A stretch of 64,000 nucleotides of DNA from Balanoglossus misakiensis (Eukaryota > Animalia > Hemichordata). The notes under the pieces were generated by a model. It saw only the letters and a program-made list of their open reading frames with translations, was not told the DNA's origin and searched no databases. Made by a program: the position numbers and the translations under genes. This document shows positions 30,091 to 64,000 of this stretch, in pieces. Within the stretch, counting starts at the first letter, position 1, and the number at the start of each line of letters is the position of its first letter. Where the stretch lies: the NCBI GenBank assembly GCA_040954595.2, contig CM082586.2, positions 9,765,337 through 9,829,336 of the forward strand, written 5' to 3'.

Positions 30091-30299
30091 GTAATACTAA
30101 CATATCATAGAATGCAATGCATCGAACATTATTGATTTGCATGTTACGTATAGTTCTATAGTGGATGTAGAATCCCGGAGAGACTAATATGATCACATGG
30201 TACATTTCATAAACAGAATACTTTAATTTCTTGTAAATATGAAATACAGTGAATAAATAAAATGTATCGGCAGTGCAAAATGTAAACCAACAGTGGAGT

Positions 30300-32350: not shown

Positions 32351-32357
32351 TATAAAA
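32351..32357 (+). promoter_or_regulatory. Candidate TATA box upstream of the putative P-transposase start (ATG 32426)
   Basis: TATAAAA ~70 bp upstream of AACATGG. Confidence 0.35.
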
Positions 32358-36100: not shown

Positions 36101-38222
36101 GTTTTTTTGCTAAATATTTATTTCAACCATCCAATGCTCCTAAATAATGTCGGTCATTTTACTCCCCATTCTTCGTACTGTGTTACTAATTTTCTGGGGT
36201 TTATCTGGAATGCACTTTTGCGTGTTTTTTAAGTTACGGGAGGGGTGATATGAACTACGGTCGTATGTTCACTTGCCTTCATCTTTAGACTCGTACGTCT
36301 TCATATCTCCCGGCATTTCAAAAAGTCTTTCTGCGTTGAACATTTCAACTTCCAAATTGGTTGAGAATACATGGGTTGCTCTCGCACAATCTTGAAATGG
36401 CCGGGAGAGACTCTTGAGCAATTATCTGTGTCTTCGCTAACACTTCCTATGGCGGTTTCTCGTACGGCTTTTACCATAAGGGGATCTGTTTGTCGATGTA
36501 CTTGCTGCAGGTTTATATGATGCAGGTGACGGAACAGGTGCGACATGAAACAGAATTCACCGCTGTCTTCATATCGTGGGTTAGCTACTGGCGGCAATTG
36601 ATAGAAGTCACCACATGCAACAATTTGTATGCCACCGTAGTAATCTCTGGACCCTCTGATTTTTCTGCAGATTTCATCAACTTGCTCGTGTATTTTCTTG
36701 CTTATCTGCGGAATTATGTACAGCATATTATTTATAATGCATAAATGATCATAAAACCGACACATGTGCAGGTGTATAAAAAATCTAAAATTTGCAGCTT
36801 GTGACTCTTTATAATAAAAACGTAATACAACTAGTGCAAGCTTCAATATTCATATTTACCATCGATATCTCATCAATTATGAGTATATCCGTGGGCAAAA
36901 TCATATTCTTCGCAGCATAAAAAGCGGGATCCGTGTTTAGCAAGTCGCATAATTCTTGCGTAAGATATATTCCATCCTTCATTTAAATAATTATGAAAAA
37001 GGATAAAGTTAACCACAAGATGTCGACATCACATCGAACATAACTTAAAACGAAGGAAAGCAGGGGACGGCATTATCTCAGTAATAAAGGCCGAAGGATA
37101 ACATTATCTCTATACTAAATGGCGAAGGACAGTAATATTTCTATATTTTAGGCCGAAGGACATCATTGTCTCATTCCCACGGAGGAAAATAGTTTTGTAG
37201 TACATTATTACCCCACTTGAACATCGGAATAGAATTGACGAATAAAATAAAAAACTGTGCATGGGGGAATTGTCTGTGTGGTCTGCGGATTTGTATACAG
37301 AGTCTATGGCGGAGACGAAGACTTCGAATCAATTCAAACTACTTTATTACTACTTCATTACTATAGCTACGTAAGCTGGTATGCTACAGAAAAGTGTGTC
37401 AACTCAAATGAGAGAAGTGGAAAGACCGGATGCATTCAGAGTCAATCCCCAGAAAGTGCTTCAAAGTGGTCTCAAAACAAGTACTAATGAAAAGGAATTA
37501 GCGACATGTTATATAGCTCATCTTGGCGGGAAAGTTTATAAAAGCTAGATTGTTATTGGCTAATAAATGAGTCATCCGGAGACTTTGTTTTAGTACACAT
37601 CCAGGTTATTTATGTGATCAGAGTTTATGATATCACTGTCAAGATCTTAACTAGAGTGTCATGTTTACACGAATCGAAACAGCTGTTCTAAACAAACACT
37701 GCCTTAGAGGAAATACACGTGAATTTGTTCGTCCAAAATTCGCCCTTCAGTAAAAAGATGCCGTTCTTCTCCATTTCGTATAGAGATAATGATGTCCTTC
37801 GCCCTAAAATATGGAGATATTACTGTCATTCGCCCTTAAGCATACAGATAATCGTGTCCTTCGCTTTCCTTTGTTTTAGTCTCACACTTACATCGGTTTT
37901 ATTGTCCAAAGAGGCCCCCGCATCCGTGGACATCATTGGCGATCATTGGGACTTTGTCATGTTCAGTTTTGATGAAATCTTTCGAGAGTACGCTTTGGTG
38001 AAACCAATCATGAAAACTTACCCGCAAGCCTGCCCAAGCATGTACAGTCATTGCCCGAGGGTACTGCAAAGTTGCTATCCCAGTGGAGGCTGTCACGTAG
38101 ATGCTTTTTTTTTTTCCAGAATAACGGTTGTGAATATTCTTGACGAGAGTAGTTTTTCCTGTACCGGCTTGGCCTGTTATCAGGATATTGTGTCCGAAAT
38201 TCAAGAGGTTTATAGCATCCAT
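33120..38222 (-). pseudogene. PIF1-family SF1B helicase fused to an acidic linker and C-terminal PHD finger, multi-exon, frameshifted
   Basis: ITGQAGTGKT, TASTGIA, TVHAWAG, LIIDEISM, GGIQIVACGDFYQLPPV, VHRQ, QIPLKLAFALTYHKAQ, FQPGQLSVGLGRV. Splice phases link it to the acidic exon and the PHD exon. Frameshifts near 36420, 35790 and 34395. Confidence 0.82.
37043..37880. mobile_element. Possible MITE with subrepeated inverted arms in PIF1 intron 1
   Basis: GAAGGAC/ATTATCTC subrepeats at 37050-37170 are inverted at ~37760-37880. Confidence 0.45.
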
Positions 38223-38911
38223 TGTGTACTTGAGTCCAGTGAATTTGTCAAAAATCTTTAAAAATACTATAGATGCTCAAAACTCGGAATCGGACACGGA
38301 GATCGGAAACGGATCAACTGCGTAATCAACGGATCATGTGATGATGTGATCGCGGCCAATCGGTAAAGGCTGCCGCACACGAGAGAAATAAGCTGAGCAA
38401 AAAGTCATTCGAGGAATTTTGCTCAGCAAGTTTCTCTCGTGTGCGGTGGACTTGAGTAATTTTCCTCGCGAGGAAAAAAAATATCAAACATGTTGAATAT
38501 CGTGATCCGCGGCGCAAAAGATCAGGAAAAATCGCCCGCACACGGAAGGAAAATTTATATTCTCACCCAAATTGAAAGTTATGTTTGTGAGCGAAAAAAC
38601 TTGAAGTGCATTTTCTGCAAAGTTCAAGTTCATGGGTCTACACCATAAATTACGGCCGTACAAACCCGTGAGATAATACTAGTAAAAGTTGTATGTTCGT
38701 ATTTTTTTTTTTTATTGCATTGGGAGGGGGGGGGGGGGCAACGCTACAACCATAATGATATTTGTAAATTTACAAAAGACAAATGGCGATGGAACATAAT
38801 ATGTAAACGCCGAGAAAAATCACTACCATAGAGAAATCACGATGTTTTATATGTGCTAATATAGTATGTACATCAACATAATTTAACACCTAATCTTTCT
38901 ACATATTGCAG

Positions 38912-40534
38912 GATACTGGCAAGATGACTAGCACTGAAACGAAAAGTGATAGTTTGTGTGAAGTGCTGCAAACCCTGCCAGAAAATGCAGTCAGCCTGAT
39001 TTCGTCGATGGTTAAAAATAGCACAGTGAAACCAACCAGCAGAAGATGGGATAGAGATGTAATAAAATTCGGCCTACACTTGTGGCTTAGAACGCCACAG
39101 GGCTATGAAGACATAAGGAAAAGCGGCCATCTTCTACTCCCCTCCCCTAGACGTCTGCAGATGTACAAGAACATAATCGATAAAAAATCTGGGTTTCATG
39201 ACGACATATTTCAGTGGATGAAAGACACGGCTGCAGAGAAAAACATCCTCCCATCTGGAGGCTCGGTTGGTATCATACTAGATGAGATGGCCATCCAGGA
39301 GGATCTACAGATTGACACCAGAGGTGGCATTAGTAAACTAGTTGGTGATGTAGACCTCGGAGACGAATGTACCAGTATGGATGTGATGAAGGCTGGATAC
39401 AAGAAAGGAGTACTTGCGAATCATACTCTACAATTTCAATTTCTGGGCTTTACCGGTTTCACCTTCCCATTTGCGCACTTTCCAACTCGCCAAGTTCAGG
39501 CCTATCATCTTTACGTTCTATTTTGGGAAGCTGTTGATAAATTAACAGACTGGGGCTTTACTGTTGATTTAGCAATGTTCGATGGTGCCGCAGCAAATCG
39601 TTCTTTCCTGAAAATGAATTTCAACGGCAACCCACTTGATGAAAAGATGCACGCCCCGAACCGCCTCTGCAGTCCTTCTGACACCGTTATAATGTGTATG
39701 GATCCAAACATGTAATTAAGAGACTAAGGAACAGTGTACTGAAGAGTGGTGAAGGCGATACCTATCCCAGGCATTTGCGATGGAATGGTGTTTATATTGA
39801 ATGGCAACACTGGCGCGATTCCTACAAGTGGGACACAGAAGTTAACCCGGAAATGTGTAGAATCAACCACAGGTTAACAACCGAACACATTTTCCCGGGA
39901 ATGTCCGCAAAAATGCGAAACCATCTCGCTGAGCAGGTCCTCGACAGTGAAATGCTCCACCTAATGGTTTGCTTCCAGCAAAGTCTTCCCGATCCAGATA
40001 TAGCCAGGCACGACTGAATGGCACAATCGAATTCTTACGCCACACCAGTCAAATCGCGTCATTTTTCACTGACGACAGGGAAGTAAAAGGGTGTGATGAT
40101 GGGAGGCTGTTGCAGTTACTCGTGGCAAGAGATTGGTTCCAATCGTGGGAGAAAGACGAGTTGGCAGACGAGACAACAACCAAAAGCAAGAGGGCCAGAA
40201 GACTGATGTCACATGAGACACGTGAAGACATTGTGTTTTGCCTGACCGCAGTCGTCGAGATTTGTGAGAAGAGGGCGGCTAAGTCGCTGACTACACTCCC
40301 GAGTCGACTCAACAGTGACGTCGTTGAGAACTTTTTATGCCAGCAGAGGACGAATCATAACGGCTCGAACACCAACCCTACGTACCTCCAATATACAAAG
40401 GGGTGAACAGTGTTTTGCTCAGTCAAACGAGCCGTACGTCGGCTAAGAAAGCCAATGCTGGTATAAGGGCGGCACAGCCTTTTAATTTCACTACACCCAA
40501 ACCTTTAAAGGTTCAGAAAATAAGTCAAAATTGA
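38912..40534 (+). pseudogene. P-element superfamily (THAP9-like core) transposase with three frameshifts
   Basis: LPSPRRLQ, IILDEMAIQEDL, FDGAAANR, DP/KHVIKRLRN, KMRNHLA, RLNSDVVENFLCQQR, NPTYLQY. Frame changes at ~39710, ~40010 and ~40400. Splice acceptor at 38911. Confidence 0.88.
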
Positions 40535-45590: not shown

Positions 45591-45830
45591 ATATAATGAA
45601 TTATATATAAATAAGTGATTTCTAAACCATGAAAAAATGCACTCGCGCCGTTTGTCAACTTATTGTTTAACGCAAACTCATTATTTAACGCAAACTCATT
45701 ATTTAAGGCCTGTTCACACAACCCCTTGCATTTGGATCATTATGTACACATATAGTCCCCACACGTGAACAAGAAATGCACATTACTTGCGGTCATTTCA
45801 TTTTTATTATACTCATATATACTTATATAT

Positions 45831-48800
45831 CTGTAATGGAAATGGAGAAAGTACCTTATATTTTCTGTAAAATAGACATTTAATTGGCAAGCCGTCCTGC
45901 ATCAATTATTAATTGTGTACATGCACTAAAGCGCCCTCACTGCTGGGTGTGTTGTATGGTCTTTAACCCTGTTTCAAATTAGAGTACTTTCTGCAATTTC
46001 AAGACAGATCTTACGTGCCATTGGAGAGCTCCATTGACTGGTCATTCATACTGTTTTCATTCATTCATTGCGGCATCAATATATTTTATCTATTCTAGCC
46101 AAAGAGCTTGGCACCTGTTGAAATGAACTCATCTGCTGTGGGCCAGTTTATTGGTGGCAGTTGAGCTGAGGAGAGCACCTTCCTTCCCGGCACGCCACCA
46201 AGTAAAGTTCCACGCCGCCCCCCACAGATGCCAGCATTCATTCATGCGAGTGAGTGTAATTGCAAATTTGCCTATTCTAGATCTGTAATGGAAATGGAGA
46301 AAGTACCTTATATTTTCTGTAAAATAGACATTTAATTGGCAAGCCGTCCTGCATCAATTATTAATTGTGTACATGCACTAAAGCGCCCTCACTGCTGGGT
46401 GTGTTGTATGGTCTTTAACCCTGTTTCAAATTAGAGTACTTTCTGCAATTTCAAGACAGATCTTACGTGCCATTGGAGAGCTCCATTGACTGGTCATTCA
46501 TACTGTTTTCATTCATTCATTGCGGCATCAATATATTTTATCTATTCTAGCCAAAGAGCTTGGCACCTGTTGAAATGAACTCATCTGCTGTGGGCCAGTT
46601 TATTGGTGGCAGTTGAGCTGAGGAGAGCACCTTCCTTCCCGGCACGCCACCAAGTAAAGTTCCACGCCGCCCACCACAGATGCCAGCATTCATTCATGCG
46701 AGTGAGTGTAATTGCAAATTTGCCTATTCTAGAATCTTACGTGCCATTGGAGAGCTCCATTGACTGGTCATTCATACTGTTTTCATTCATTCATTGCGGC
46801 ATCAATATATTTTATCTATTCTAGCCGAAGAGCTTGGCACCTGTTGAAATGAACTCATCTGCTGTGGGCCAGTTTATTGGTGGCAGTTGAGCTGAGGAGA
46901 GCACCTTTCTTCCCGGCACGCCACCAAGTAAAGTTCCACGCCGCCCACCACAGATGCCAGCATTCATTCATGCGAGTGAGTGTAATTGCAAATTTGCCTA
47001 TTCTTACGTGCCATTGGAGAGCTCCATTGACTGGTCATTCATACTGTTTTCATTCATTCATTGCGGCATCAATATATTTTATCTATTCTAGCCAAAGAGC
47101 TTGGCACCTGTTGAAATGAACTCATCTGCTGTGGGCCAGTTTATTGGTGGCAGTTGAGCTGAGGAGAGCACCTTCCTTCCCGGCACGCCACCAAGTAAAG
47201 TTCCACGCCGCCCACCACAGATGCCAGCATTCATTCATGCGAGTGAGTGTAATTGCAAATTTGCCTATTCTAGATCTGTAATGGAAATGGAGAAAGTACC
47301 TTATATTTTCTGTAAAATAGACATTTAATTGGCAAGCCGTCCTGCATCAATTATTAATTGTGTACATGCACTAAAGCGCCCTCACTGCTGGGTGTGTTGT
47401 ATGGTCTTTAACCCTGTTTCAAATTAGAGTACTTTCTGCAATTTCAAGACAGATCTTACGTGCCATTGGAGAGCTCCATTGACTGGTCATTCATACTGTT
47501 TTCATTCATTCATTGCGGCATCAATATATTTTATCTATTCTAGCCAAAGAGCTTGGCACCTGTTGAAATGAACTCATCTGCTGTGGGCCAGTTTATTGGT
47601 GGCAGTTGAGCTGAGGAGAGCACCTTCCTTCCCGGCACGCCACCAAGTAAAGTTCCACGCCGCCCACCACAGATGCCAGCATTCATTCATGCGAGTGAGT
47701 GTAATTGCAAATTTGCCTATTCTAGATCTGTAATGGAAATGGAGAAAGTACCTTATATTTTCTGTAAAATAGACATTTAATTGGCAAGCCGTCCTGCATC
47801 AATTATTAATTGTGTACATGCACTAAAGCGCCCTCACTGCTGGGTGTGTTGTATGGTCTTTAACCCTGTTTCAAATTAGAGTACTTTCTGCAATTTCAAG
47901 ACAGATCTTACGTGCCATTGGAGAGCTCCATTGACTGGTCATTCATACTGTTTTCATTCATTCATTGCGGCATCAATATATTTTATCTATTCTAGCCAAA
48001 GAGCTTGGCACCTGTTGAAATGAACTCATCTGCTGTGGGCCAGTTTATTGGTGGCAGTTGAGCTGAGGAGAGCACCTTCCTTCCCGGCACGCCACCAAGT
48101 AAAGTTCCACGCCGCCCACCACAGATGCCAGCATTCATTCATGCGAGTGAGTGTAATTGCAAATTTGCCTATTCTAGAATCTTACGTGCCATTGGAGAGC
48201 TCCATTCATACTGTTTTCATTCATTCATTGCGGCATCAATATATTTTATCTATTCTAGCCGAAGAGCTTGGCACCTGTTGAAATGAACTCATCTGCTGTG
48301 GGCCAGTTTATTGGTGGCAGTTGAGCTGAGGAGAGCACCTTCCTTCCCGGCACGCCACCAAGTAAAGTTCCACGCCGCCCACCACAGATGCCAGCATTCA
48401 TTCATGCGAGTGAGTGTAATTGCAAATTTGCCTATTCTAGAATCTTACGTGCCATTGGAGAGCTCCATTCATACTGTTTTCATTCATTCATTGCGGCATC
48501 AATATATTTTATCTATTCTAGCCGAAGAGCTTGGCACCTGTTGAAATGAACTCATCTGCTGTGGGCCAGTTTATTGGTGGCAGTTGAGCTGAGGAGAGCA
48601 CCTTCCTTCCCGGCACGCCACCAAGTAAAGTTCCACGCCGCCCACCACAGATGCCAGCATTCATTCATGCGAGTGAGTGTAATTGCAAATTTGCCTATTC
48701 TTACGTGCCATTGGAGAGCTCCATTGACTGGTCATTCATACTGTTTTCATTCATTCATTGCGGCATCAATATATTTTATCTATTCTAGCCAAAGAGCTTG

Positions 48801-51800
48801 GCACCTGTTGAAATGAACTCATCTGCTGTGGGCCAGTTTATTGGTGGCAGTTGAGCTGAGGAGAGCACCTTCCTTCCCGGCACGCCACCAAGTAAAGTTC
48901 CACGCCGCCCACCACAGATGCCAGCATTCATTCATGCGAGTGAGTGTAATTGCAAATTTGCCTATTCTAGATCTGTAATGGAAATGGAGAAAGTACCTTA
49001 TATTTTCTGTAAAATAGACATTTAATTGGCAAGCCGTCCTGCATCAATTATTAATTGTGTACATGCACTAAAGCGCCCTCACTGCTGGGTGTGTTGTATG
49101 GTCTTTAACCCTGTTTCAAATTAGAGTACTTTCTGCAATTTCAAGACAGATCTTACGTGCCATTGGAGAGCTCCATTGACTGGTCATTCATACTGTTTTC
49201 ATTCATTCATTGCGGCATCAATATATTTTATCTATTCTAGCCAAAGAGCTTGGCACCTGTTGAAATGAACTCATCTGCTGTGGGCCAGTTTATTGGTGGC
49301 AGTTGAGCTGAGGAGAGCACCTTCCTTCCCGGCACGCCACCAAGTAAAGTTCCACGCCACCCACCACAGATGCCAGCATTCATTCATGCGAGTGAGTGTA
49401 ATTGCAAATTTGCCTATTCTAGAATCTTACGTGCCATTGGAGAGCTCCATTGACTGGTCATTCATACTGTTTTCATTCATTCATTGCGGCATCAATATAT
49501 TTTATCTATTCTAGCCGAAGAGCTTGGCACCTGTTGAAATGAACTCATCTGCTGTGGGCCAGTTTATTGGTGGCAGTTGAGCTGAGGAGAGCACCTTCCT
49601 TCCCGGCACGCCACCAAGTAAAGTTCCACGCCGCCCACCACAGATGCCAGCATTCATTCATGCGAGTGAGTGTAATTGCAAATTTGCCTATTCTTACGTG
49701 CCATTGGAGAGCTCCATTGACTGGTCATTCATACTGTTTTCATTCATTCATTGCGGCATCAATATATTTTATCTATTCTAGCCAAAGAGCTTGGCACCTG
49801 TTGAAATGAACTCATCTGCTGTGGGCCAGTTTATTGGTGGCAGTTGAGCTGAGGAGAGCACCTTCCTTCCCGGCACGCCACCAAGTAAAGTTCCACGCCG
49901 CCCACCACAGATGCCAGCATTCATTCATGCGAGTGAGTGTAATTGCAAATTTGCCTATTCTAGATCTGTAATGGAAATGGAGAAAGTACCTTATATTTTC
50001 TGTAAAATAGACATTTAATTGGCAAGCCATCCTGCATCAATTATTAATTGTGTACATGCACTAAAGCGCCCTCACTGCTGGGTGTGTTGTATGGTCTTTA
50101 ACCCTGTTTCAAATTAGAGTACTTTCTGCAATTTCAAGACAGATCTTACGTGCCATTGGAGAGCTCCATTGACTGGTCATTCATACTGTTTTCATTCATT
50201 CATTGCGGCATCAATATATTTTATCTATTCTAACCAAAGAGCTTGGCACCTGTTGAAATGAACTCATCTGCTGTGGGCCAGTTTATTGGTGGCAGTTGAG
50301 CTGAGGAGAGCACCTTCCTTCCCGGCACGCCACCAAGTAAAGTTCCACGCCGCCCACCACAGATGCCAGCATTCATTCATGCGAGTGAGTGTAATTGCAA
50401 ATTTGCCTATTCTAGATCTGTAATGGAAATGGAGAAAGTACCTTATATTTTCTGTAAAATAGACATTTAATTGGCAAGCCGTCCTGCATCAATTATTAAT
50501 TGTGTACATGCACTAAAGCGCCCTCACTGCTGGGTGTGTTGTATGGTCTTTAACCCTGTTTCAAATTAGAGTACTTTCTGCAATTTCAAGACAGATCTTA
50601 CGTGCCATTGGAGAGCTCCATTGACTGGTCATTCATACTGTTTTCATTCATTCATTGCGGCATCAATATATTTTATCTATTCTAGCCAAAGAGCTTGGCA
50701 CCTGTTGAAATGAACTCATCTGCTGTGGGCCAGTTTATTGGTGGCAGTTGAGCTGAGGAGAGCACCTTCCTTCCCGGCACGCCACCAAGTAAAGTTCCAC
50801 GCCGCCCACCACAGATGCCAGCATTCATTCATGCGAGTGAGTGTAATTGCAAATTTGCCTATTCTAGATCTGTAATGGAAATGGAGAAAGTACCTTATAT
50901 TTTCTGTAAAATAGACATTTAATTGGCAAGCCGTCCTGCATCAATTATTAATTGTGTACATGCACTAAAGCGCCCTCACTGCTGGGTGTGTTGTATGGTC
51001 TTTAACCCTGTTTCAAATTAGAGTACTTTCTGCAATTTCAAGACAGATCTTACGTGCCATTGGAGAGCTCCATTGACTGGTCATTCATACTGTTTTCATT
51101 CATTCATTGCGGCATCAATATATTTTATCTATTCTAGCCAAAGAGCTTGGCACCTGTTGAAATGAACTCATCTGCTGTGGGCCAGTTTATTGGTGGCAGT
51201 TGAGCTGAGGAGAGCACCTTCCTTCCCGGCACGCCACCAAGTAAAGTTCCACGCCGCCCACCACAGATGCCAGCATTCATTCATGCGAGTGAGTGTAATT
51301 GCAAATTTGCCTATTCTAGATCTGTAATGGAAATGGAGAAAGTACCTTATATTTTCTGTAAAATAGACATTTAATTGGCAAGCCGTCCTGCATCAATTAT
51401 TAATTGTGTACATGCACTAAAGCGCCCTCACTGCTGGGTGTGTTGTATGGTCTTTAACCCTGTTTCAAATTAGAGTACTTTCTGCAATTTCAAGACAGAT
51501 CTTACGTGCCATTGGAGAGCTCCATTGACTGGTCATTCATACTGTTTTCATTCATTCATTGCGGCATCAATATATTTTATCTATTCTAGCCAAAGAGCTT
51601 GGCACCTGTTGAAATGAACTCATCCTTCCCGGCACGCCACCAAGTAAAGTTCCACGCCGCCCACCACAGATGCCAGCATTCATTCATGCGAGTGAGTGTA
51701 ATTGCAAATTTGCCTATTCTAGAATCTTACGTGCCATTGGAGAGCTCCATTGACTGGTCATTCATACTGTTTTCATTCATTCATTGCGGCATCAATATAT

Positions 51801-53376
51801 TTTATCTATTCTAGCCGAAGAGCTTGGCACCTGTTGAAATGAACTCATCTGCTGTGGGCCAGTTTATTGGTGGCAGTTGAGCTGAGGAGAGCACCTTCCT
51901 TCCCGGCACGCCACCAAGTAAAGTTCCACGCCGCCCACCACAGATGCCAGCATTCATTCATGCGAGTGAGTGTAATTGCAAATTTGCCTATTCTTACGTG
52001 CCATTGGAGAGCTCCATTGACTGGTCATTCATACTGTTTTCATTCATTCATTGCGGCATCAATATATTTTATCTATTCTAGCCAAAGAGCTTGGCACCTG
52101 TTGAAATGAACTCATCTGCTGTGGGCCAGTTTATTGGTGGCAGTTGAGCTGAGGAGAGCACCTTCCTTCCCGGCACGCCACCAAGTAAAGTTCCACGCCG
52201 CCCACCACAGATGCCAGCATTCATTCATGCGAGTGAGTGTAATTGCAAATTTGCCTATTCTAGATCTGTAATGGAAATGGAGAAAGTACCTTATATTTTC
52301 TGTAAAATAGACATTTAATTGGCAAGCCGTCCTGCATCAATTATTAATTGTGTACATGCACTAAAGCGCCCTCACTGCTGGGTGTGTTGTATGGTCTTTA
52401 ACCCTGTTTCAAATTAGAGTACTTTCTGCAATTTCAAGACAGATCTTACGTGCCATTGGAGAGCTCCATTGACTGGTCATTCATACTGTTTTCATTCATT
52501 CATTGCGGCATCAATATATTTTATCTATTCTAGCCAAAGAGCTTGGCACCTGTTGAAATGAACTCATCTGCTGTGGGCCAGTTTATTGGTGGCAGTTGAG
52601 CTGAGGAGAGCACCTTCCTTCCCGGCACGCCACCAAGTAAAGTTCCACGCCGCCCACCACAGATGCCAGCATTCATTCATGCGAGTGAGTGTAATTGCAA
52701 ATTTGCCTATTCTAGATCTGTAATGGAAATGGAGAAAGTACCTTATATTTTCTGTAAAATAGACATTTAATTGGCAAGCCGTCCTGCATCAATTATTAAT
52801 TGTGTACATGCACTAAAGCGCCCTCACTGCTGGGTGTGTTGTATGGTCTTTAACCCTGTTTCAAATTAGAGTACTTTCTGCAATTTCAAGACAGATCTTA
52901 CGTGCCATTGGAGAGCTCCATTGACTGGTCATTCATACTGTTTTCATTCATTCATTGCAGCATCAATATATTTTATCTATTCTAGCCAAAGAGCTTGGCA
53001 CCTGTTGAAATGAACTCATCTGCTGTGGGCCAGTTTATTGGTGGCAGTTGAGCTGAGGAGAGCACCTTCCTTCCCGGCACGCCACCAAGTAAAGTTCCAC
53101 GCCGCCCACCACAGATGCCAGCATTCATTCATGCGAGTGAGTGTAATTGCAAATTTGCCTATTCTAGAATTCTTACGTGCCATTGGAGAGCTCCATTGCC
53201 TGGTCAATCATACTGTTTTCATTCATTCATTGTGGCATCAATATATTTTATCTATTCTAGCCGAAGAGCTTGGCACCTGTTGAAATGAACTCATCTGCTG
53301 TGGGCCAGTTTATTGGTGGCAGTTGAGCAGAGGAGAGCACCTTCTTTCCCGGCACGCCACCAAGTAAAGTTCCACG
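45831..53376 (+). repeat. Left terminal array: 177-bp TIR-bearing module B + ~275-bp module A (452-bp period), with B absent at 10 junctions
   Basis: B starts at 45831, 46283, 47276, 47728, 48973, 49966, 50418, 50870, 51322, 52266 and 52718. Copies are near-identical. Confidence 0.95.
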
Positions 53377-53763
53377 TGCATTCCTGGCCCTGGTTTTATT
53401 TATGTTTACAGACAATATTGCATTTTTGTACAAGTATTTTAATCAACTATAAATTTTGAATGTGTCATTTACCTGAACCGGTCATGTTGACCAGAATGAT
53501 ACATTTCTGCCTTCACTCACCCTATAAATATGTGATTGAGACATAGGTCATTTGCATAAGCTAACATACCAGAAAGTAAGCATATCTGTTGTTTTCCCTG
53601 TGTCACTGCCATCAAAGTAAAAATTAGACGTTGTGTAGAGCAAACTCCAATTTTTTGTTCTCAATAAACATGGATGAATTACATAGAATGTGTTTGTTGT
53701 TTACAGTCTTTAAATGACACATTAGATTATGCACTTTACAAAACGTTTCTGAGAAACAAGTGA

Positions 53764-54264
53764 CTAACTAGTTTCTTTCCACTGTGGCCAACGTGGTTCA
53801 CTGTTTGTGTCAGAATCTCTCTGTTTTGCAAGGATTTTGAAATCATAGTGGTGACATGCATAGTGAAAATCAGCTACTTTCAAATGTCTGTCATGTTCAT
53901 GCTGTAATTGAATTTTCAAAGCTGGGCTGGCGTGTTTTTTCTTATTTACATAAGTATCACACTTTATACATGTATCTTCATGGGGTTTTTTGAGTCCCGT
54001 ATTTAGGTCCTCTCTCACAATTTTACGAAATATCGTATAACTGACAGTTGTTCTTCCCAGAAGAGATTGGTTGGTTATGAACTCTCGGTGTAACTGCGAT
54101 ATACTGTGGTCCGGCGCCAGGTACGGTTTAAATCGAGGATTCCTGCAGTAGTGAGATTCTACAATTATGTGCCTGCGTACGTGTTCAGTGATATCAGTCA
54201 GCAAATTTGGATTGAGTTTCCGACGATGCCCTTTGTGTCGGCCCCTTGCATCTGGCATCAGACC
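53764..54264 (-). pseudogene. 5'-truncated duplicate of the Sola N-half gene (902-bp tandem duplication 53363-54264 / 54265-55166)
   Basis: ORF 53764-54258 is nearly identical to the C-terminal 164 aa of 54666-55622. Confidence 0.9.
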
Positions 54265-54665
54265 AGTAAAGTTCCATGTGCATTCCTGGCCCTGGTTTTA
54301 TTTATGTTTACAGACAATATTGCATTTTTGTACAAGTATTTTAATCAACTATAAATTTTGAATGTGTCATTTACCTGAACCGGTCATGTTGACCAGAATG
54401 ATACATTTCTGCCTTCACTCACCCTATAAATATGTGATTGAGACATAGGTCATTTGCATAAGCTAACATACCAGAAAGTAAGCATATCTGATGTTTTCCC
54501 TGTGTCACTGCCATCAAAGTAAAAATTAGACGTTGTGTAGAGCAAACTCCAATTTTTTGTTCTCAATAAACATGGATGAATTACATAGAATGTGTTTGTT
54601 GTTTACAGTCTTTAAATGACACATTAGATTATGCACTTTACAAAACGTTTCTGAGAAACAAGTGA

Positions 54666-55622
54666 CTAACTAGTTTCTTTCCACTGTGGCCAACGTGGTT
54701 CACTGTTTGTGTCAGAATCTCTCTGTTTTGCAAGGATTTTGAAATCATAGTGGTGACATGCATAGTGAAAATCAGCTACTTTCAAATGTCCGTCATGTTC
54801 ATGCTGTAATTGAATTTTCAAAGCTGGGCTGGCGTGTTTTTTCTTATTTACATAAGTATCACACTTTATACATGTATCTTCATGGGGTTTTCTGAGTCCC
54901 GTATTTAGGTCCTCTCTCACAATTTTACGAAATATCGTATAACTGACAGTTGTTCTTCCCAGAAGAGATTGGTTGGTTATGAACTCTCGGTGTAACTGCG
55001 ATATACTGTGGTCCGGCGCCAGGTACGGTTTAAATCGAGGATTCCTGCAGTAGTGAGATTCTACAATTCTGTGCCTGCGTACGTGTTCAGTGATATCAGT
55101 CAGCAAATTTGGATTGAGTTTCCGACGATGCCCTTTGTGTCGGCCCCTTGCATCTGGCATCAGACCAGTTGAACAGTGCATCATTTTGCTTAGAACGGTT
55201 CTAGTCCGCCTCTCACTAATGCCAAATAATTTCAGGAATGCATTTTTGCAGACAGTAACCGTTTCACCGCCTTCATTCACCAGGTGATAACGAACCGATT
55301 TCTTGTGTGACTTCATCTGTATATCCATCAGTTTGTAGAGCATCAAGTTCTGTTCATTATACACGCGACCATCAAAATATTTTCTCGTGGTGCCTAAAAC
55401 ATGCGTACTCCCAAGCTTCCGCAGACAATTCCCTTGAACGCAGGCGCATTCCAAGGAAAGACTGTCAATATCTGGAAAAGGGCGATTTTTCCTTGGTTTT
55501 TGTCTCGGACACGTCTTTTTAGAATTCCTACGTGGCTTGTTGGCTCGAGCTGACAGTTCGGTTCTGCGTTGCTGCCACACAGGAATGGGTTCCCACGCAT
55601 AAGCAACTCCCCGGCAGGCCAT
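54666..55622 (-). CDS. Sola1-type transposase N-terminal half (Cys/His-rich DNA-binding region), 318 aa
   Basis: ACCATGG start and an uninterrupted frame. Motifs CACVQGNC, VCKNAFLKLFGIS..R, DARGRH, ESHYCR, YL, SY..FRKI, KPHEDTCIKCD, H..HL, as I recognise them from Sola1 N-termini. Confidence 0.8.
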   Translation of the reverse strand: MACRGVAYAWEPIPVWQQRRTELSARANKPRRNSKKTCPRQKPRKNRPFPDIDSLSLECACVQGNCLRKLGSTHVLGTTRKYFDGRVYNEQNLMLYKLMDIQMKSHKKSVRYHLVNEGGETVTVCKNAFLKLFGISERRTRTVLSKMMHCSTGLMPDARGRHKGHRRKLNPNLLTDITEHVRRHRIVESHYCRNPRFKPYLAPDHSISQLHREFITNQSLLGRTTVSYTIFRKIVREDLNTGLRKPHEDTCIKCDTYVNKKKHASPALKIQLQHEHDGHLKVADFHYACHHYDFKILAKQRDSDTNSEPRWPQWKETS

Positions 55623-55785
55623 GGTCACAGCTGAAGTATTTGTTCAAGTACTGACTGACTAAACGCGGCATGGAACAAACGAACGAACGACTTCACGTTC
55701 GGAAAAAAAATCGTTGCGAGCTGTTGGGTGCCTCTATAGTTGTCGGCAACCGTTCTTTTTTATTGCTAAACAATGCTGTCAGAGC

Positions 55786-56799
55786 ATGGAAGGTGTGGTG
55801 GAAAACGAACAGAGGTTTTGTACGACCAACGATTGGATGGTGCTACATATGGACTTCCACAAGTCATTGCCGGTTCCTAAACTCAGCTCTGAAGACTTTT
55901 ACTTTAAATCGAAATTGCAAATGAAGCTCCTTGGAATTTACAACGGGACAACGGAAAAGATGCATTGTTATGTATGGACAGAGCTCGATAGCAGAAAGTC
56001 TCCCGATGAAGTTATTACCTGTCTAAATCACTTTTTTTATAACTCGGGTGTGACCAGCAGACATGCAGTTATTTACAGCGACAACTGCCGTGCCGAATTC
56101 AAGTGTGGGAAGTTAATGTTTTACTATGACTATCTGTTACGAAAGGGCGTGTTTCGACGAATTGACTATAAAACTCTTGTGGCTGGACACACGTACTCCA
56201 CCTGTGACCGAGTTTTTGCGTCCATTGAAAGGCATGCAAGTCGTTTCCAGAGTATAGAGACACCTCACGATTGGACATCTGTGATTCGAGGATCTTCTCT
56301 GAATGGGAACATTGGAGTTACGGAGATGACTCACAGAGACTTTTTCAATTATTCTGATTTCCTGAAAAATGAGTACGTTGTGCGTTATGCAGATACAAAC
56401 AATGTAACTTTTTACTACCAAGCCATGCACTATTTTAATTTTGGAGAAGGAGAAAGGCTTGATACCGACGGCAACCTCAGAACATTTAGTCATGCAGATA
56501 AAGTTTGGGTGAGAACATCTCTAGATCCAAGCGAGACCCCGATTGTAGTCGACTTTAGAAAGAAGAAGCAGAACCGGCGTTTACAAGATTGTACGCTGAA
56601 CAAACTTTATCAGGAACGTCGACCACTGGCGAGCAAAGTTTGGCGGGATCTTCAGAGTTTAGCCAAAAATTACCTGTCTCCGGAGGCAATAGAATTTTAT
56701 AGGAATCTACCGCTTCAGGAGAGTAGTGGCACCTCTGCAGACCCGTACGCCTTTCATGATGATGACGACGACGATGATGATGATATGGGCGGTGGTTGA
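55786..56799 (+). CDS. Sola1-type transposase catalytic (RNase H-fold DDD) half, 337 aa
   Basis: AGCATGG start. LHMDFHKSLPVP..FYFKSKL, YVWTE...SPDEVITCL, YSDNC, GHTYSTCDRVFASIE: all three Asp present. Acidic tail. Confidence 0.85.
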   Translation: MEGVVENEQRFCTTNDWMVLHMDFHKSLPVPKLSSEDFYFKSKLQMKLLGIYNGTTEKMHCYVWTELDSRKSPDEVITCLNHFFYNSGVTSRHAVIYSDNCRAEFKCGKLMFYYDYLLRKGVFRRIDYKTLVAGHTYSTCDRVFASIERHASRFQSIETPHDWTSVIRGSSLNGNIGVTEMTHRDFFNYSDFLKNEYVVRYADTNNVTFYYQAMHYFNFGEGERLDTDGNLRTFSHADKVWVRTSLDPSETPIVVDFRKKKQNRRLQDCTLNKLYQERRPLASKVWRDLQSLAKNYLSPEAIEFYRNLPLQESSGTSADPYAFHDDDDDDDDDMGGG

Positions 56800-56960
56800 A
56801 CAAACTGTCCTTTTCATGACGACAGTGATTTTGGATATTTGATGTGCGTGCACAGTTTATATGTAATATTTTCACACGAACGAGTTTTGACTGAATTTGA
56901 TTAAAGAATGTACTCGATAATTAACAAATGTGCTGAATCGTGGTTATTATGTTGTTAATT

Positions 56961-56993
56961 TTTGTTTGTTTGTTTGTTTGTTTGTTTGTTTGT
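56961..56993. repeat. (TTTG)n microsatellite
   Basis: Direct reading. Confidence 0.9.
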
Positions 56994-57189
56994 AAACAAT
57001 TTCCGTTCATTCAACTGGCTACAAAGTTGGATTTTTGTACTGGGAAGCGATAAACTCGCACATCAAAACCGGGGAGACTCGATCATTTTTCCCTGCAGGT
57101 AGCCTGAAAAGCACCCGGGCAGAGATTACGTCATATATGGTCCACTTTAATACGAAATTATGCAAATGTGACATATCACGGAAACGGCG

Positions 57190-57199
57190 TATATAAAAG
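57190..57199 (+). promoter_or_regulatory. Candidate TATA box of the wHTH-SET gene
   Basis: TATATAAAAG ~90 bp upstream of AACATGG (ATG 57291). Confidence 0.5.
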
Positions 57200-57290
57200 C
57201 GACCCTGGGCTATTGTTCGGAATGCGTCATCGACGAGAGAGTGACTGATAATTCTTCTACCTCGAGTCAACCATTCTGTATATACTGAAC

Positions 57291-58616
57291 ATGGCTAGCT
57301 GGCGCAGGAAGAGACAAGGCAATGTGCGGTCTGTAATCAACGAACGGCACCGCTCAGTTCAGTGTCCCTTTCTTCAAAAGTGGATCGGTGAGCAATTGGT
57401 ATTTTCAGGTCGTTCAGAGGATGAAGTCCAGTCCAGTACTGTATTTGAGAGCTACAAATGTTGGGTTGAAAACTATTCGTCGGCGGACAATCAAGTAATG
57501 ATTATGGTTACTAAAGCTCGATTTTTCAAGGTGAGAATGATCGCATTTTTCTTCCCCCCCCCCTCCCTCCCCCAAGGGACTCGTTTTCTGTCTCTTTTAA
57601 ACCTGTAACTTAACGAAAAGGAAGTTTTTCACATATCTCTTTGTTGACACTATAGCAATTTGGAGCGCGGATGCTTCAAGAGAATAGCGTTACCAAATCA
57701 AAGTCGGCCGGGGTTAATATTTATAGAGGTGTTCGTCTGAAAGCTGGTTCGCGAAGAATCTCAACGGGGAAACCTGAGCACAGTGTACTTCAGACCAGGG
57801 CAAGGGCATTTCTTGATGACGCCAGCGTGACCGTTCCGATCGAGGTAAGAATGGTGTTTTGTTTGGACTAGGACAATAGAACGTTGCAATGAGTGTGTCA
57901 ATGGGTGTCCAAGTGCAAACGTGGTCGGCTTCTGTCCACAAATGCCATTAATTTTAGGCAGGATTTATAAAATTGTCAATGAAGAATACAAAAATGAAAA
58001 ACAATAGTTAATAGCAAACGGGTAGGATTGCAAGGGCTTGTAAAACGGTACACACTGTACCAGGAAGTTTGCAACACTAATGAAGAATGTATATGATATA
58101 TTTAGGTGAGAACTGTTCGCGATCGCCGGGACGCAGGACGGTGCGCGTTTTCGACGAGGGATCTTCAAGCCTGGAACGTCGTCTGCGAATACCGGGGCAC
58201 GGTTATTAGCGTTGAAGAAGCTAGTCGGCGTGATGAACTTTACAGGGCAGAGGGGAAACGACCACGCATGTTTCATCTCTACATTGGAAAGAGACACGTT
58301 GTGTGAGTGTATCACTTAGTCGAATATATGGTCATATATTGCAAAGCATCTGTCGAAATAGAAAACGTAATATTGTCTATATTTTCCTCATTAACGCAGC
58401 ATTGACGGATACGATGTCCCAGCCGGTGAAGAAAATTTAGCGGGCCTAATAAATCACAGTCAGCAGAACGCCAACTTGGTACCGGTTCGGATCGGAGAGC
58501 GCCTGGTTTTCTTTGCAACCAGGAATCTTTGTCAGGGAGTAGAGCTTTTGTATGATTACGGTGACGGGGGTGAAGAGGATTTCTTCAGTGGTTCTCAAAC
58601 TTTTCCTGAAAATTAA
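57291..58616 (+). CDS. Winged-helix (RFX/D5-C-terminal-like) + PR-Set7/SETD8-like SET-domain protein, 4 exons, 280 aa
   Basis: Exons 57291-57530, 57656-57844, 58106-58302 and 58400-58616, all GT-AG, total 843 nt in frame. SET motifs GRCAFSTR, VCEYRG, RDELY, IDG, GLINHS, FFATRNL..G.ELLYDYGD. Confidence 0.85.
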
Positions 58617-59518
58617 GGCATTAACACATCAACGCTTCGGGATGTCGTAACGGCGGCAAGGCGGGGGGGGGGGGCGTGAAAATGTTTGTATCAGGAACAA
58701 AATTCCCCTGCAAATCACCTTGATCCGGGTGGGTGGACTATTCGCGACAAATGTTGAAATCATACAAAGCATTTTACTTAATTAACCCATTTTTTTTTCA
58801 TTTATTTGTTTACAGTTTACAACGTCATAGAGAAGTTGAACTAGAGACTGGATCAGCGTGGGTGACACCATAGTACACCAATGTTTTCTTCCGTTTGAAT
58901 CAATTGTAATTTAAAACTGAGATTGCCTAACGCTTTCCCAGATTTTTTTAACCACTGAGAAACTGTGGGTTTTTTTCTGGGTTTTGGTGCGAGGTGATCT
59001 CAGTCAGTGGTGTTAATTTAATTAATCATTTTATTTTCCTATTTACGTCGACTGAAATGTATTTTGATAGGTGATAGTCATACCATAAAAAAATCTTACG
59101 GCGCGACTGCCAAAATGTACATTTATTTGTCCGTTCCAAGTTATTTTGTGTATGTGTGATGGGTGCCGGTGACTGTGCAGGGTTGATTTCCCTAGAGCGA
59201 CTGTTATATTCGTTTTCCAACGATGATGAATTTACATGTTATTTGCTTGGCATTTTGACGCAGAGACACTTCTGAAAACACAAACCTATTTATTATGCCA
59301 CGGGTGTAAATTGATCACATTAAAAGAGGCTTTAGACGTTTGCCGCGAGCTCCTGGTGGGCAGAATCTTGTCAGCCCAAATTTGACTATAAGTACATAGC
59401 CAATGATATGACGCTCTCCCACATCCTTCGCCGCGCCTTTTCGCTGATTTACAGCATCTTGCGTAAACACTGTCATTTGATCTTGCTTGGCAGAAGTCAA
59501 CTTGCTCTATACTACATT

Positions 59519-59884
59519 ATGGCGGCCAAGCTCAACTGCATATCAGATAATGCCAAGGAGCGTTTGAGAGGCATCCTCGCCAGAAGGAGTCGCGTTTCCG
59601 GTGACTGTGTGCTCTGGACGGGTGCAGCTTGTCGAAACGGCTATGGCTCTATTACGTTCAAAGATGAGAACACTCTAACCGCCTATGTCCATCACATTGC
59701 ACTCCTAATTAACGGAGTGCAATTGGTGGGCAGGCGGTTAGAGTGTTCTCATCTTTGCAACGAAAAGCTATGCATCCGCCCAGAGCACATTGTCCAGGAA
59801 ACGCGACTCCTAAACATTTCACGAAAGACGTGCTTTAAATCCCCAAAAGGGGAGTGTCACCACGATCCCAGGTGCCTAAGGTGA
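59519..59884 (+). CDS. Small His-Me finger (His-Cys box, I-PpoI-like) endonuclease, 121 aa
   Basis: CVLWTGA..RNGYG, YVHH, SHLCNEKLCIRPEHIVQETRLLNISRKTC, CHHDPRC. The His of SHLC and the downstream Asn are retained. A splice donor at 59881 could alter the last residues. Confidence 0.88.
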   Translation: MAAKLNCISDNAKERLRGILARRSRVSGDCVLWTGAACRNGYGSITFKDENTLTAYVHHIALLINGVQLVGRRLECSHLCNEKLCIRPEHIVQETRLLNISRKTCFKSPKGECHHDPRCLR

Positions 59885-60870
59885 GTAATCCTCTTCTCAT
59901 TTGATATGTATTGTGTGACCCTGCAGTTGAAACGCTTTCATCAATAATTTGCGGCGCGTGGGTAATCTCGGTGTTATTGACAATGCAGCCGGCCCAAACA
60001 TTTTTAAATTAACACTGTTTCTGACTGTATTAACGAAATGTCCAATTTGCAAGTAGCCTATAGACAACCCTTTTGAATGAGTTTTGTCTCGTTGAGATTT
60101 TATACATAAGGAACAATCTAGATTTATTTTAGAAGACACTGTTCTTTTAAAACAGCTAGCATAATACAGCTAAATTTCGGAATTTCCGGACAATTTTCGG
60201 AATTCCTTTTAAATTTGAGAAATTTTTCATCAGATATAAGTGTTACTATTTATTGGGCATGTTTTTATCATTGTTTACTTTTTAAGGTCATTCTCATCCC
60301 CCCCCCCCCCAAAAAAAAAAGCCGCTTTAGGCTTCATGTTCAGTAAAAAATCTGGAAAGTTCAGCTGAATTTTACACTGATCACACATTTTTGGGAAGGT
60401 CTGGCGCAAAATAAAGGATGACAAATGTAAATCTAATGTCACATTTGTAAACCTCTAAGTATTGTACACTCATTCTATTAAGTATATGCAAATAGTACGG
60501 ATAATTTTTTCGGAATGTGGAATTCCGAAATTAGTTCGGAACGTGTTAGCAGTGAAGAGATCACCACTGAGGGTTGGAAGGCCTTGCCAGAAATTAACGC
60601 GTAAAGTACGCCCTCACAGGCCATGTAAACAAGGTCAAATAAGGCCGTCTGGCAAACGAATGATTAATTCAACGCGCCATTTGAGCCGAGCTGAGTTGGT
60701 CTGAGTTGCGTATCACACAGACTTAGGCTGAATGTCAGTGGAGTAACCAGTCCGTTTTAGATTTACCAATGATGTGAATTTAATTTCTTCACCCAGAAAA
60801 ACAGAACACAACTTGTCTGCAACATGATGCTGGAGGTGACACATGACAGAGAAGTGGATCCGCGTTGTCA

Positions 60871-61200
60871 ACACAGATGCCAGCATTCAAAAGGGGAGTG
60901 CCACCTGCTAAAATCAACTCATCTGCTGTTGGCCCATTTTACCTGTGGCAACTGTTCAGAGGAGACAACGTTTATTCCGTGCAAGCCAACACGCAATGTT
61001 GGGGTCTACCTGTCAACACAGATGCAAGCATTCATGTGAGTGAGTATCAGGACTGACCTTGTATTTGCTGAATAATTCATAATGCCTATTTTAGAATTCT
61101 TAGAGGCATTTGGAGTTCATTGCCTGGTCAACCAAACTACACCCCTTAACAGCTGAAACAAAATGCGTATTGTGTTCATTCATTCATTGCATCAATATAT
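60871..61200 (+). repeat. Highly diverged module-A relic inside the element
   Basis: CACAGATGCCAGCATTCA, AACTCATCTGCTG, GCCTATTTTAGAATTCTTA and CATTCATTCATTGCATCAATATAT match module A. Confidence 0.75.
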
Positions 61201-61515
61201 ATAGGCAACATGAGTATCAAGTAGCACTATTTGTTTACGATTGTATTCATGAAAACTTCCCACTAACAATTCCACAGTTAATATTGAACACATTTATCCA
61301 ACAAGGTCAAAAGAAAAAGGGAATCTTCTGGTTCCAAAATACGCCACAAATGTGGGTCAACATACAGTGAAATATTATGGTGCTCAAATATGCAACATAT
61401 CAAATCTGTCTCATCAAAGTCATGCTTTAAAAAAGAATTGAAAAGGTATTATTTATCCATTTGACTGCTGTATTTTCAGAAGGAAAACAAACTGAATTTG
61501 GTTTTTCATGTACAA

Positions 61516-63117
61516 ATATTTTCTGTAAAATAGACATTTAATTGGCAAGCCGTCCTGCATCAATTATTAATTGTGTACATGCACTAAAGCGCCCTCACTG
61601 CTGGGTGTGTTGTATGGTCTTTAACCCTGTTTCAAATTAGAGTACTTTCTGCAATTTCAAGACAGATCTTACGTGCCATTGGAGAGCTCCATTGACTGGT
61701 CATTCATACTGTTTTCATTCATTCATTGCGGCATCAATATATTTTATCTATTCTAGCCAAAGAGCTTGGCACCTGTTGAAATGAACTCATCTGCTGTGGG
61801 CCAGTTTATTGGTGGCAGTTGAGCTGAGGAGAGCACCTTCCTTCCCGGCACGCCACCAAGTAAAGTTCCACGCCGCCCACCACAGATGCCAGCATTCATT
61901 CATGCGAGTGAGTGTAATTGCAAATTTGCCTATTCTAGATTCTTACGTGCCATTGGAGAGCTCCATTGACTGGTCATTCATACTGTTTTCATTCATTCAT
62001 TGCGGCATCAATATATTTTATCTATTCTAGCCAAAGAGCTTGGCACCTGTTGAAATGAACTCATCTGCTGTGGGCCAGTTTATTGGTGGCAGTTGAGCTG
62101 AGGAGAGCACCTTCCTTCCCGGCACGCCACCAAGTAAAGTTCCACGCCGCCCACCACAGATGCCAGCATTCATTCATGCGAGTGAGTGTAATTGCAAATT
62201 TGCCTATTCTAGATCTGTAATGGAAATGGAGAAAGTACCTTATATTTTCTGTAAAATAGACATTTAATTGGCAAGCCGTCCTGCATCAATTCTTAATTGT
62301 GTACATGCACTAAAGCGCCCTCACTGCTGGGTGTGTTGTATGGTCTTTAACCCTGTTTCAAATTAGAGTACTTTCTGCAATTTCAAGACAGATCTTACGT
62401 GCCATTGGAGAGCTCCATTGACTGGTCATTCATACTGTTTTCATTCATTCATTGCGGCATCAATATATTTTATCTATTCTAGCCAAAGAGCTTGGCACCT
62501 GTTGAAATGAACTCATCTGCTGTGGGCCAGTTTATTGGTGGCAGTTGAGCTGAGGAGAGCACCTTCCTTCCCGGCACGCCACCAAGTAAAGTTCCACGCC
62601 GCCCACCACAGATGCCAGCATTCATTCATGCGAGTGAGTGTAATTGCAAATTTGCCTATTCTAGATTCTTACGTGCCATTGGAGAGCTCCATTGACTGGT
62701 CATTCATACTGTTTTCATTCATTCATTGCGGCATCAATATATTTTATCTATTCTAGCCAAAGAGCTTGGCACCTGTTGAAATGAACTCATCTGCTGTGGG
62801 CCAGTTTATTGGTGGCAGTTGAGCTGAGGAGAGCACCTTCCTTCCCGGCACGCCACCAAGTAAAGTTCCACGCCGCCCACCACAGATGCCAGCATTCATT
62901 CATGCGAGTGAGTGTAATTGCAAATTTGCCTATTCTAGATCTGTAATGGAAATGGAGAAAGTACCTTATATTTTCTGTAAAATAGACATTTAATTGGCAA
63001 GCCGTCCTGCATCAATTATTAATTGTGTACATGCACTAAAGCGCCCTCACTGCTGGGTGTGTTGTATGGTCTTTAACCCTGTTTCAAATTAGAGTACTTT
63101 CTGCAATTTCAAGACAG
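61516..63117 (+). repeat. Right terminal array: partial B, A, A, B, A, A, B (same orientation as the left array)
   Basis: Complete B at ~62214 and at 62941-63117. The innermost B lacks its left TIR. B-less junctions at ~61940 and ~62665. Confidence 0.93.
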
Positions 63118-63286
63118 ATATACTTATATACTTATATACTTATATATTAGATGAAACACCGAAAAAGGTATCAACTAGTTAGTGATTTTAGCCCGTGATT
63201 GCAATGTTTGATTGAAACGCGAAAAGCTGATCGATAGCTCTACATTGTGGTCTCCGAGGTCAAAGGTTGGCCGGTCATGGCGATAC

Positions 63287-63475
63287 CATTATTAAAATAG
63301 GGGCCAGTCATCAAAACGTAAGTGAGCCAAAAAACTACAGGTCAGATAAATTGTTTTCTCGTAAATTCAACATTAGAATCAAATTTGGCGTTGGAAACAA
63401 ACGGCGGGTCGCCAGTTCCTGGTCTGGAGGCTGGTAGAGTCACGTCTTGAAGACTGGCCCCTATTTTAATAATGG
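63287..63475. mobile_element. Short inverted-repeat element (possible MITE)
   Basis: CCATTATTAAAATAGGGGCCAGTC is inverted as GACTGGCCCCTATTTTAATAATGG ~140 bp downstream. Confidence 0.5.
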
Positions 63476-64000
63476 CATTCCAGCATATGTCTCTATACCC
63501 GAATCGACAATTAACATTACAGGACAGCTGACGGATATAAAATTTATACTTTATAGAGAGGAACAAATTCAGACTTAAACATACTTTATATGTTTGTATT
63601 TTACAGCTGGGATACTTTTCTGTGCGTAAAGATAAACACTGGTCGCAATAAATGACGTCGAGTGGTTTCAGTTGAATTCCATTTGTGCGAGGCAGGTGTG
63701 GACAGCATGCAAAGCGGCGTTGTTATTGGCGCGGTTCCTTTAAAGTGTTTTACTCTGTCATTCAGCGAGTTTTCTGACCGCGTATGAAGTTCGGTGTCCA
63801 GTGGCGTTGACGGCGTGTCATTCAGAAATCTATGTTCAGTGTATTCAGTTCAAGACTGAAGTCAGCAAATGTTACAATTATTAGTTTGTTTGTGGAAGTT
63901 GGAAATGATGCAACAAGGATTCTTGAATGTATTCGAGATTTTAAAAAGAAGATGTAGTGCTCTAAAGGGCCATTGTGACGACAATATTTTGCCCAACAGC

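Follow-up and report, generated by a model that had tools for sequence, protein, structure and literature searches.

Can the repeat arrays of a transposon record how its ends were cut? This question is raised by a composite element in the hemichordate Balanoglossus misakiensis, which lies in a 64,000-nucleotide stretch of assembly GCA_040954595.2 (contig CM082586.2, positions 9,765,337 to 9,829,336 of the forward strand; hereafter the window, whose positions serve as coordinates throughout). The element is a 17.3-kb block that begins and ends with a 177-bp module, B, and carries arrays of B and of A, a 267-bp non-coding repeated internal unit (Table 1). Two transposase genes, head to head and 163 bases apart, lie between the arrays, and we take the enzyme, from its motifs, to be Sola1-like (Pfam name DUF7869; no search named the protein Sola). 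As parsed in the window the block is flanked by ATAT on both sides, and contig comparison showed that it is missing as a whole from other copies of the same host repeat. A preliminary description had interpreted array junctions that lack B as transposase excision footprints, including one with a hairpin-type signature. We find that the junction series is real and, leaning slightly beyond even, we read it as the repair scars of B excision from the arrays, each of which arose once and was then copied by unequal exchange; a hairpin signature is compatible with these junctions, and unproven.

Table 1. Positions of the composite element, its modules, junction forms and genes in the window
Feature	Position	Strand	Remarks
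Complete composite element	45831..63117	.	first base of leftmost B to last base of rightmost B
B module, leftmost copy	45831..46007	+	177 bp, ends CTGT..ACAG
Left array of B and A units	45831..53376	+	order B B f1 f2 B B f1 f1 f2 B f1 f2 B B B B f1 f2 B B f3
Junction form f1 (CTAGAATCTTACG)	46728..46736; also 48173, 48436, 49418, 51718	+	next A unit always 92G
Junction form f2 (CTATTCTTACG)	47002..47003; also 48699, 49692, 51992	+	microhomology join; always next junction after an f1
Junction form f3 (AATT, CTAGAATTCTTACG)	53163..53172	+	array inner edge, ahead of older A copy 53172-53376
902-bp tandem duplication	53363..55169	.	covers 3' part of N-terminal transposase gene; 99.4% identity
N-terminal transposase half gene	54666..55622	-	318 aa; matches N-terminal halves of homologues
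Catalytic transposase half gene	55786..56799	+	DUF7869; D22, D98, D140 (numbering starts at base 55789); predicted RNase H-like fold
SET-domain exons	58106..58616	+	Pfam SET, E 0.003 and 1.6e-7; more exons likely from about 57250
His-Me finger (I-PpoI-like) endonuclease gene	59519..59884	+	121 aa; PF05551, E 9.6e-13
227-nt quasi-palindrome in His-Me coding region	59585..59811	+	predicted rod-like hairpin
Relic A-A junction	60866..61200	+	about 70% identical to A; AATT form at 61093
Right array	61516..63117	+	B without left end, then A f4 A B A f4 A B
Junction form f4 (CTAGATTCTTACG)	61934, 62660	+	right array

B-less junctions and their history

Parsing from the end of A gave 24 anchored sites in the window, half of them (12/24) followed by a 177-bp B and half (12/24) B-less. 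Filled sites read CTAGAT and then B, with ATCTTACG on the far side in 11 of the 12 and the outside flank in the last. Four B-less forms stand beside them, namely CTAGAATCTTACG (f1, the AAT form; five sites), CTATTCTTACG (f2, the short form; four), CTAGAATTCTTACG (f3, the AATT form; one) and CTAGATTCTTACG (f4, the ATT form; two). The preliminary description had given positions for these that agree with ours to within about 10 bases, and the AATT junction that it reported near 61093 in a relic is indeed present there; its statement that sites vary only at the module boundary is nearly right, the A units (n = 25) also carrying two internal deletions of the microhomology type and several single-nucleotide polymorphisms (SNPs). 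Among the whole B copies (n = 13), 11 match the query copy at 100% and 2 at 99.4% identity, and the module ends in imperfect 24-bp terminal inverted repeats that are 79% alike. One further B, at 61516-61665, lacks its first 27 bp, and unique sequence precedes this copy without left inverted repeat (61200-61665); B may be a deletion derivative that joins the left terminus to the right end seen here. The arrays have plainly been shuffled by unequal exchange.

The same junctions recur in sequencing contigs; the runs were X1 and X2 from one sample (possibly the source of the window) and X3 and X4 from one sample of another study. Contigs of X2 contain f1, f3 and f4 at depths of 25000, 8700 and 6286 (raw contig depths, not copy numbers), f2 is present as a loose end, and in X3 and X4 the contigs contain f1 and the filled form. 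One more form, the fifth (f5, CTAGAATTACG), occurs only in X2 contigs (depth 4673) and is treated with caution. The variants sit in near-identical tandem repeats, and X1 and X2 may be the window's own sample, as would suit read or assembly errors; the forms are, however, linked to SNPs, contig depth is high and f1 was found again in the second study. We therefore regard the junction variants as real, the error explanation being largely refuted by SNP linkage and contig evidence and so improbable that it hardly enters the weighing below. Contigs of X2 also show an extra GATC at the left B junction, at the right B junction, at one empty site and in B-to-B joins. We considered these extras as target duplications or mariner-like footprints and dropped them, as two of the GATC insertions occur in no contig of X1, from the same sample. 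Unrelated DNA is also seen joined through GATCGATC, and this motif is the ligation scar of proximity libraries cut at GATC. The five GATC-duplicated rows of X2 are thus likely to be ligation artefacts and were excluded from the footprint count.

Linked SNPs reveal how many events the junctions represent. The 92G variant of A is found in all five units that follow f1, and also in the A after f3, and in none of the 19 A units that follow B (13), f2 (4) or f4 (2), so that f2 and f4 share the 92A haplotype with all 13 A units after a B. The f2 form always follows f1 inside one duplicated cassette. Because of these linked SNPs and the module order, each form traces to a single event that was then copied by unequal exchange. 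The A unit after f3 is an edge copy with extra differences, of which positions 28, 36 and 158 match the relic, and the palindrome AGAATTCT occurs within the element only at these two old junctions (edge copy and relic). AATT is the oldest junction state seen in the window, and the total amounts to three recent events and one old state (f3). Of the at least three to four independent excisions spread by unequal exchange that had been proposed, recurrence at one boundary and subsequent spread both stand, with the count revised in this way.

Candidate origins of the junction forms

We enumerated three models against the observed forms: blunt excision with trimming, hairpin formation, and a single deletion from AATT. 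With blunt excision and trimming, f1 arises by loss of a single left-hand base, f4 by loss of a single right-hand base and f2 by loss of eight bases with TCT microhomology, but f3 and f5 are not obtained. All five forms follow from a hAT-like hairpin if the nick lies one base inside the flank, whereas a RAG-like hairpin without base loss fails for f3 and f5. A single contiguous deletion from AATT gives f1, f4, f5 and f2 by loss of 1, 1, 3 and 8 bases, respectively. Neither the simple join (0/12) nor the single-AT site CTAGATCTTACG (0/12) is found among the empty sites of the window; the latter absence is taken from the window only, as the read tables lacked f2 too.

The single-AT site is the product expected from slippage between the 6-bp AGATCT repeats at the B ends, and its absence from the window disfavours B loss without an enzyme. 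Slippage or recombination in the satellite array would fit arrays that are shuffled by unequal exchange, A units with two microhomology-type internal deletions and an f2 that is itself a microhomology join, but the ends of f1 and f4 lie no more than one base from the B termini and, with the expected product missing, we consider an enzyme-free origin improbable. The junction series most likely records double-strand breaks at the B boundary, and these breaks are probably due to excision of B. Three distinct small indel events lie within 8 bp of the B boundary, versus two in the rest of the 25 A units, and f1, like f4, is short of one base on a single side, which matches the one-sided loss of 1-5 flanking bases in KolobokP (PMC9587614). 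Excision is further supported by the conserved catalytic Asp residues and open frame of the transposase, and by the occurrence, elsewhere in the same sample, of diverged B relatives and of a B end that continues into (AT)n. On this reading the two transposase halves would assemble in trans and bind the B ends, and the assembled enzyme would mobilise the block by its outermost ends or else excise just one internal B; end joining would then lose one base on one side (f1, f4) or join at the TCT microhomology (f2), as in KolobokP terminal repeats, and the AATT junction would be the ancestral target or an ancient scar.

Several observations weigh against excision. If AATT is the ancestral target, the AGAT/B/ATCT flanks are not a canonical 4-bp duplication and two further changes are needed; 92G, the variant that goes with f1, is also on the AATT edge copy and on none of the 13 B-following units, which fits descent from AATT without B; and f5 cannot arise by plain trimming of a filled site. 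We also found no solo B with a readable target duplication, the outer ends lying in AT-rich repeats where 10 bp of host sequence are replaced. The internal flanks of B, AGAT and ATCT, have only AT in common. The outer flanks are ATAT on both sides, but they lie within AT-rich filler, and in other host-repeat copies 10 different bases stand there. This filler (ATATACTT repeats, at 45815-45830 and 63118-63146) replaces the 10 host-repeat bases at the outer insertion site. Another B end and one diverged B relative likewise run into (AT)n, on short contigs none of which has both flanks. An AWWT target is a hallmark of Sola1 (PMC3845634), and an A unit taken together with its junction has 9 AWWT sites, of which AATT is one. 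AWWT was found at 7 of the 8 flanks of four fused relatives whose inverted repeats are visible, with an identical pair in 1 of 4; the non-identical pairs possibly reflect contigs that join different copies.

In its strong form, the excision reading would make all B-less forms, AATT included, footprints of a hAT/RAG-type flank hairpin, with the relic as an ancient one, which we regard as unlikely. A one-base flank nick with hairpin opening does give five of five forms, with AATT as the one-plus-one palindromic product, it accounts for the filled geometry without extra steps, and the simple join is missing from the window. Central-inversion and one-base-shorter forms are common Ac/Ds footprints. 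The hairpin inference nevertheless depends on f3 being a footprint; plain trimming fits the three recent forms, and AATT is confined within the element to the old edge copy and the relic. As the oldest state, and the ancestral target or an ancient scar, AATT alone is no proof of hairpin chemistry, all the other forms being equally one deletion away from it. The predicted structure of the enzyme also speaks against it. D22 and D98 of the catalytic domain are nearly invariant and D140, the putative third catalytic residue, is invariant; 41 residues separate D98 from D140, and a structure model (mean predicted local distance difference test score, pLDDT, 85.9) places only strand, helix, strand and helix between them, with no insertion domain. 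The predicted core is compact and aligns with integrases and mariner transposases at Z 9-10.5, versus Z 7.4 for Hermes, an alignment with a long interruption by the Hermes insertion domain. The junction set is compatible with the flank-hairpin footprints of hAT, MULE, Transib and RAG, but the model lacks the insertion domain between the second and third catalytic residues, and the diagnostic form is here also the oldest state. These four groups are the ones listed as flank-hairpin enzymes, with residues in common such as a conserved Trp (PMC5499845). The hairpin signature claimed in the preliminary description is therefore not established, and the alternative that it offered, AATT as the ancestral site, has support at least equal to the hairpin reading. 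That description did not take up the KolobokP precedent, the His-Me nuclease as another candidate cutter or the split of the transposase.

An ancestral AATT leads to a different scenario, which we consider a real, if less probable, rival to excision, and in which the empty junctions never held B. Here AGAATTCT would be the site in its ancestral state and would also be what the element's His-Me nuclease cuts, and f1, f4, f5 and f2 would be repair deletions of 1, 1, 3 and 8 bp that resist recutting. B would have entered AATT, an AWWT target, both B junctions being 2-bp deletions of the regenerated palindrome, and cutting would also drive the unequal exchange that builds the arrays. Each form is one deletion from AATT, the palindrome is left only at the two old junctions, and 92G is common to the f1-following units and the AATT copy; the His-Me catalytic residues are in place, I-PpoI-type enzymes cut semi-palindromes, the flanks of the four fused relatives are mostly AWWT, and induced unequal crossover has been proposed for KolobokP (PMC9587614). 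Yet this scenario needs an identical 2-bp deletion at both B ends that is seen at 0/12 empty sites, and f2 and f4 need AATT on the 92A haplotype, which is not seen in the window. AATT is moreover still common in the X2 contigs, hence not purged, and the His-Me protein is a candidate cutter. The three readings (excision, the hairpin within excision, and nuclease scars) lie close together.

A transposase in two genes and its companions

The 318-residue protein and the catalytic protein are two halves of one transposase, because the former matches the N-terminal halves of 73 of the 182 proteins that a search with the catalytic half retrieved. The 12 best matches of the catalytic half all lack an N-half match, and in 9 of them the start lies no more than about a dozen residues from that of the query. 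Among 29 related metagenome loci, most of them short, the best 8 include 5 in which the N half lies tail to tail on the opposite strand (L002, L003, L005, L007 and L008), and 3 in which no N half was seen (L001, L004 and L006); lower-scoring loci such as L013, L014, L015 and L022 are fused. The DNA of L002, L003, L005 and L007 is 68-88% alike, so that the opposite-strand loci add about two lineages to that of the window. A FastTree tree was built from 125 catalytic domains (matches covering too little of the query being left out, and labels following our own rule); it places the window in a clade of 16 members, with support 0.999, none of which is fused. A hidden intron could account for the genes on short contigs, but not for the opposite-strand loci. 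A local inversion of the transposase gene was considered and rejected, since related loci have the same split. In a sister branch (L008:1-531; proteins P0007 and P0021) the catalytic half starts with a PHD finger and not with the usual N-terminal half.

A Foldseek search gave no match at E 0.001, the alignment of the catalytic half matched no solved structure by sequence, word-index protein searches with the catalytic half, the N half and the nuclease gave nothing at E 0.001, and no relatives were found on viral contigs.

Two further genes accompany the transposase. A spliced SET-domain gene lies beside the split transposase in two distant elements (window 57252-58616; L003:313-1757), in differing orientations, the homologue in L003 being 39% identical. 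The His-Me protein has the catalytic His/His/Asn positions, and its best solved match is I-PpoI (E 0.002). Its coding region contains a quasi-palindrome whose predicted hairpin (59585-59811) folds at -154 kcal/mol (z -17.7; 0 of 200 shuffles), versus a median of -53.5 kcal/mol for 240-base windows in the element core, and the frame stays open throughout. The nuclease codons appear constrained by pairing, because both hairpin arms encode motif-like stretches, and the predicted fold suggests a role for the hairpin in RNA-level control of the nuclease. None of the 29 related loci, which are mostly short, showed a His-Me gene or a DNA match to A, B or the core, and Rfam gave no match in 52890-63200.

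Other parts of the window carry repeats and mobile-element pieces of their own. A large satellite occupies 1-11766 (192-196-bp units, with higher-order repeats of about 1.26 kb), and a minus-strand frame at 19991-21298, with a weak zf-RVT match, resembles the end of a reverse transcriptase from a non-LTR retrotransposon. Mobile-element genes of other kinds span 29533-40406, including two copies of a PHD-finger gene (30300-31731 and 33120-34613), a PIF1 helicase piece (36301-36849) and P/THAP9-like RNase H transposase pieces (38894-40406). A small element with 37-bp inverted repeats (63283-63478) lies just beyond the right end of the composite.

Relation to KolobokP, Sola1 and other systems

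The predicted separation of DNA binding and catalysis into two proteins recalls PIF/Harbinger elements, which are two-gene transposons whose second protein is an unrelated Myb/SANT protein; here, in contrast, both genes are halves of one otherwise fused transposase. Features that may link the present element to Sola1 are the DDD core (DUF7869), an N half that matches fused homologues of 600-750 residues, and, in its fused relatives, short terminal inverted repeats with mostly AWWT flanks, the flank type of Sola1 (PMC3845634). Sola1 elements differ in having one continuous transposase gene where the window has two on opposite strands; composite ends and arrays, accessory SET and His-Me genes, and internal B flanks (AGAT and ATCT) without an AWWT duplication set the element further apart.

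The closest resemblance in design is to KolobokP, whose direct repeats have their own inverted ends, which forms multimers, and in which repeats are missing between internal units with micro-deletions (PMC9587614). All of these traits are found here, with B in direct orientation at both outer ends, and a small I-PpoI-like His-Me nuclease likewise stands beside a DDD/E transposase; in KolobokP this nuclease has been proposed to induce unequal crossover (PMC9587614). The repeat is, however, 177 bp here and about 450 or 660 bp in KolobokP, the termini are CT..AG and not RR..YY, and the block measures 17.3 kb as against 4-4.7 kb (PMC9587614). In place of the C/DxxH signature and the zinc finger that separates the second D from the final E, we find a DUF7869 core; two genes encode the split transposase, there is also a SET gene, and the repeated internal unit is the non-coding A. 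The element works like KolobokP but falls outside that family by repeat length, termini and transposase type. A 2026 review (PMC13565253) treats KolobokP, in the portion cited, as an example of a protein-guided homing-type nuclease in a transposon, a model that it describes as unconfirmed, and names Sola only for Fanzor. The Sola passages of PMC4455052, PMC5751038, PMC10294476 and bioRxiv 10.1101/2021.09.26.461848 describe no split or composite Sola. The literature searches likewise turned up no report of a split Sola transposase, direct-repeat-ended Sola, hairpin-forming nuclease gene or excision mechanism for Sola elements; Repbase and the original Sola paper lay outside this scope, so that a prior entry is possible.

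Terminal repeat loss with micro-deletions is already known from KolobokP (PMC9587614), and the footprints alone are less novel for that reason. What is new is a KolobokP-like composite built on a putatively Sola1-like split transposase together with a SET gene and a His-Me gene with a hairpin coding region, and the larger value lies in the element itself, in which split transposase, KolobokP-like architecture and structured nuclease gene are combined. As a tentative synthesis, which as a whole we think may well not hold, a Sola-type lineage would have split its transposase into DNA-binding and catalytic genes and independently evolved the KolobokP design; its homing nuclease would cut a palindrome in the element's own arrays and so expand them, restrained by the 227-nt double-stranded hairpin, and the junctions would be either nuclease scars or the products of flank-hairpin excision without the hAT/RAG insertion domain.

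The young, high-copy family, with its open catalytic frame and natural series of footprints, makes the question of Sola excision testable, and a transposase that comes split in nature offers a ready-made tool in two parts. Built-in RNA-level control is suggested by a nuclease gene that doubles as a long hairpin. If the synthesis is true, His-Me nucleases would accompany direct-repeat ends in a second superfamily, and KolobokP would be no oddity but an instance of a convergent strategy.

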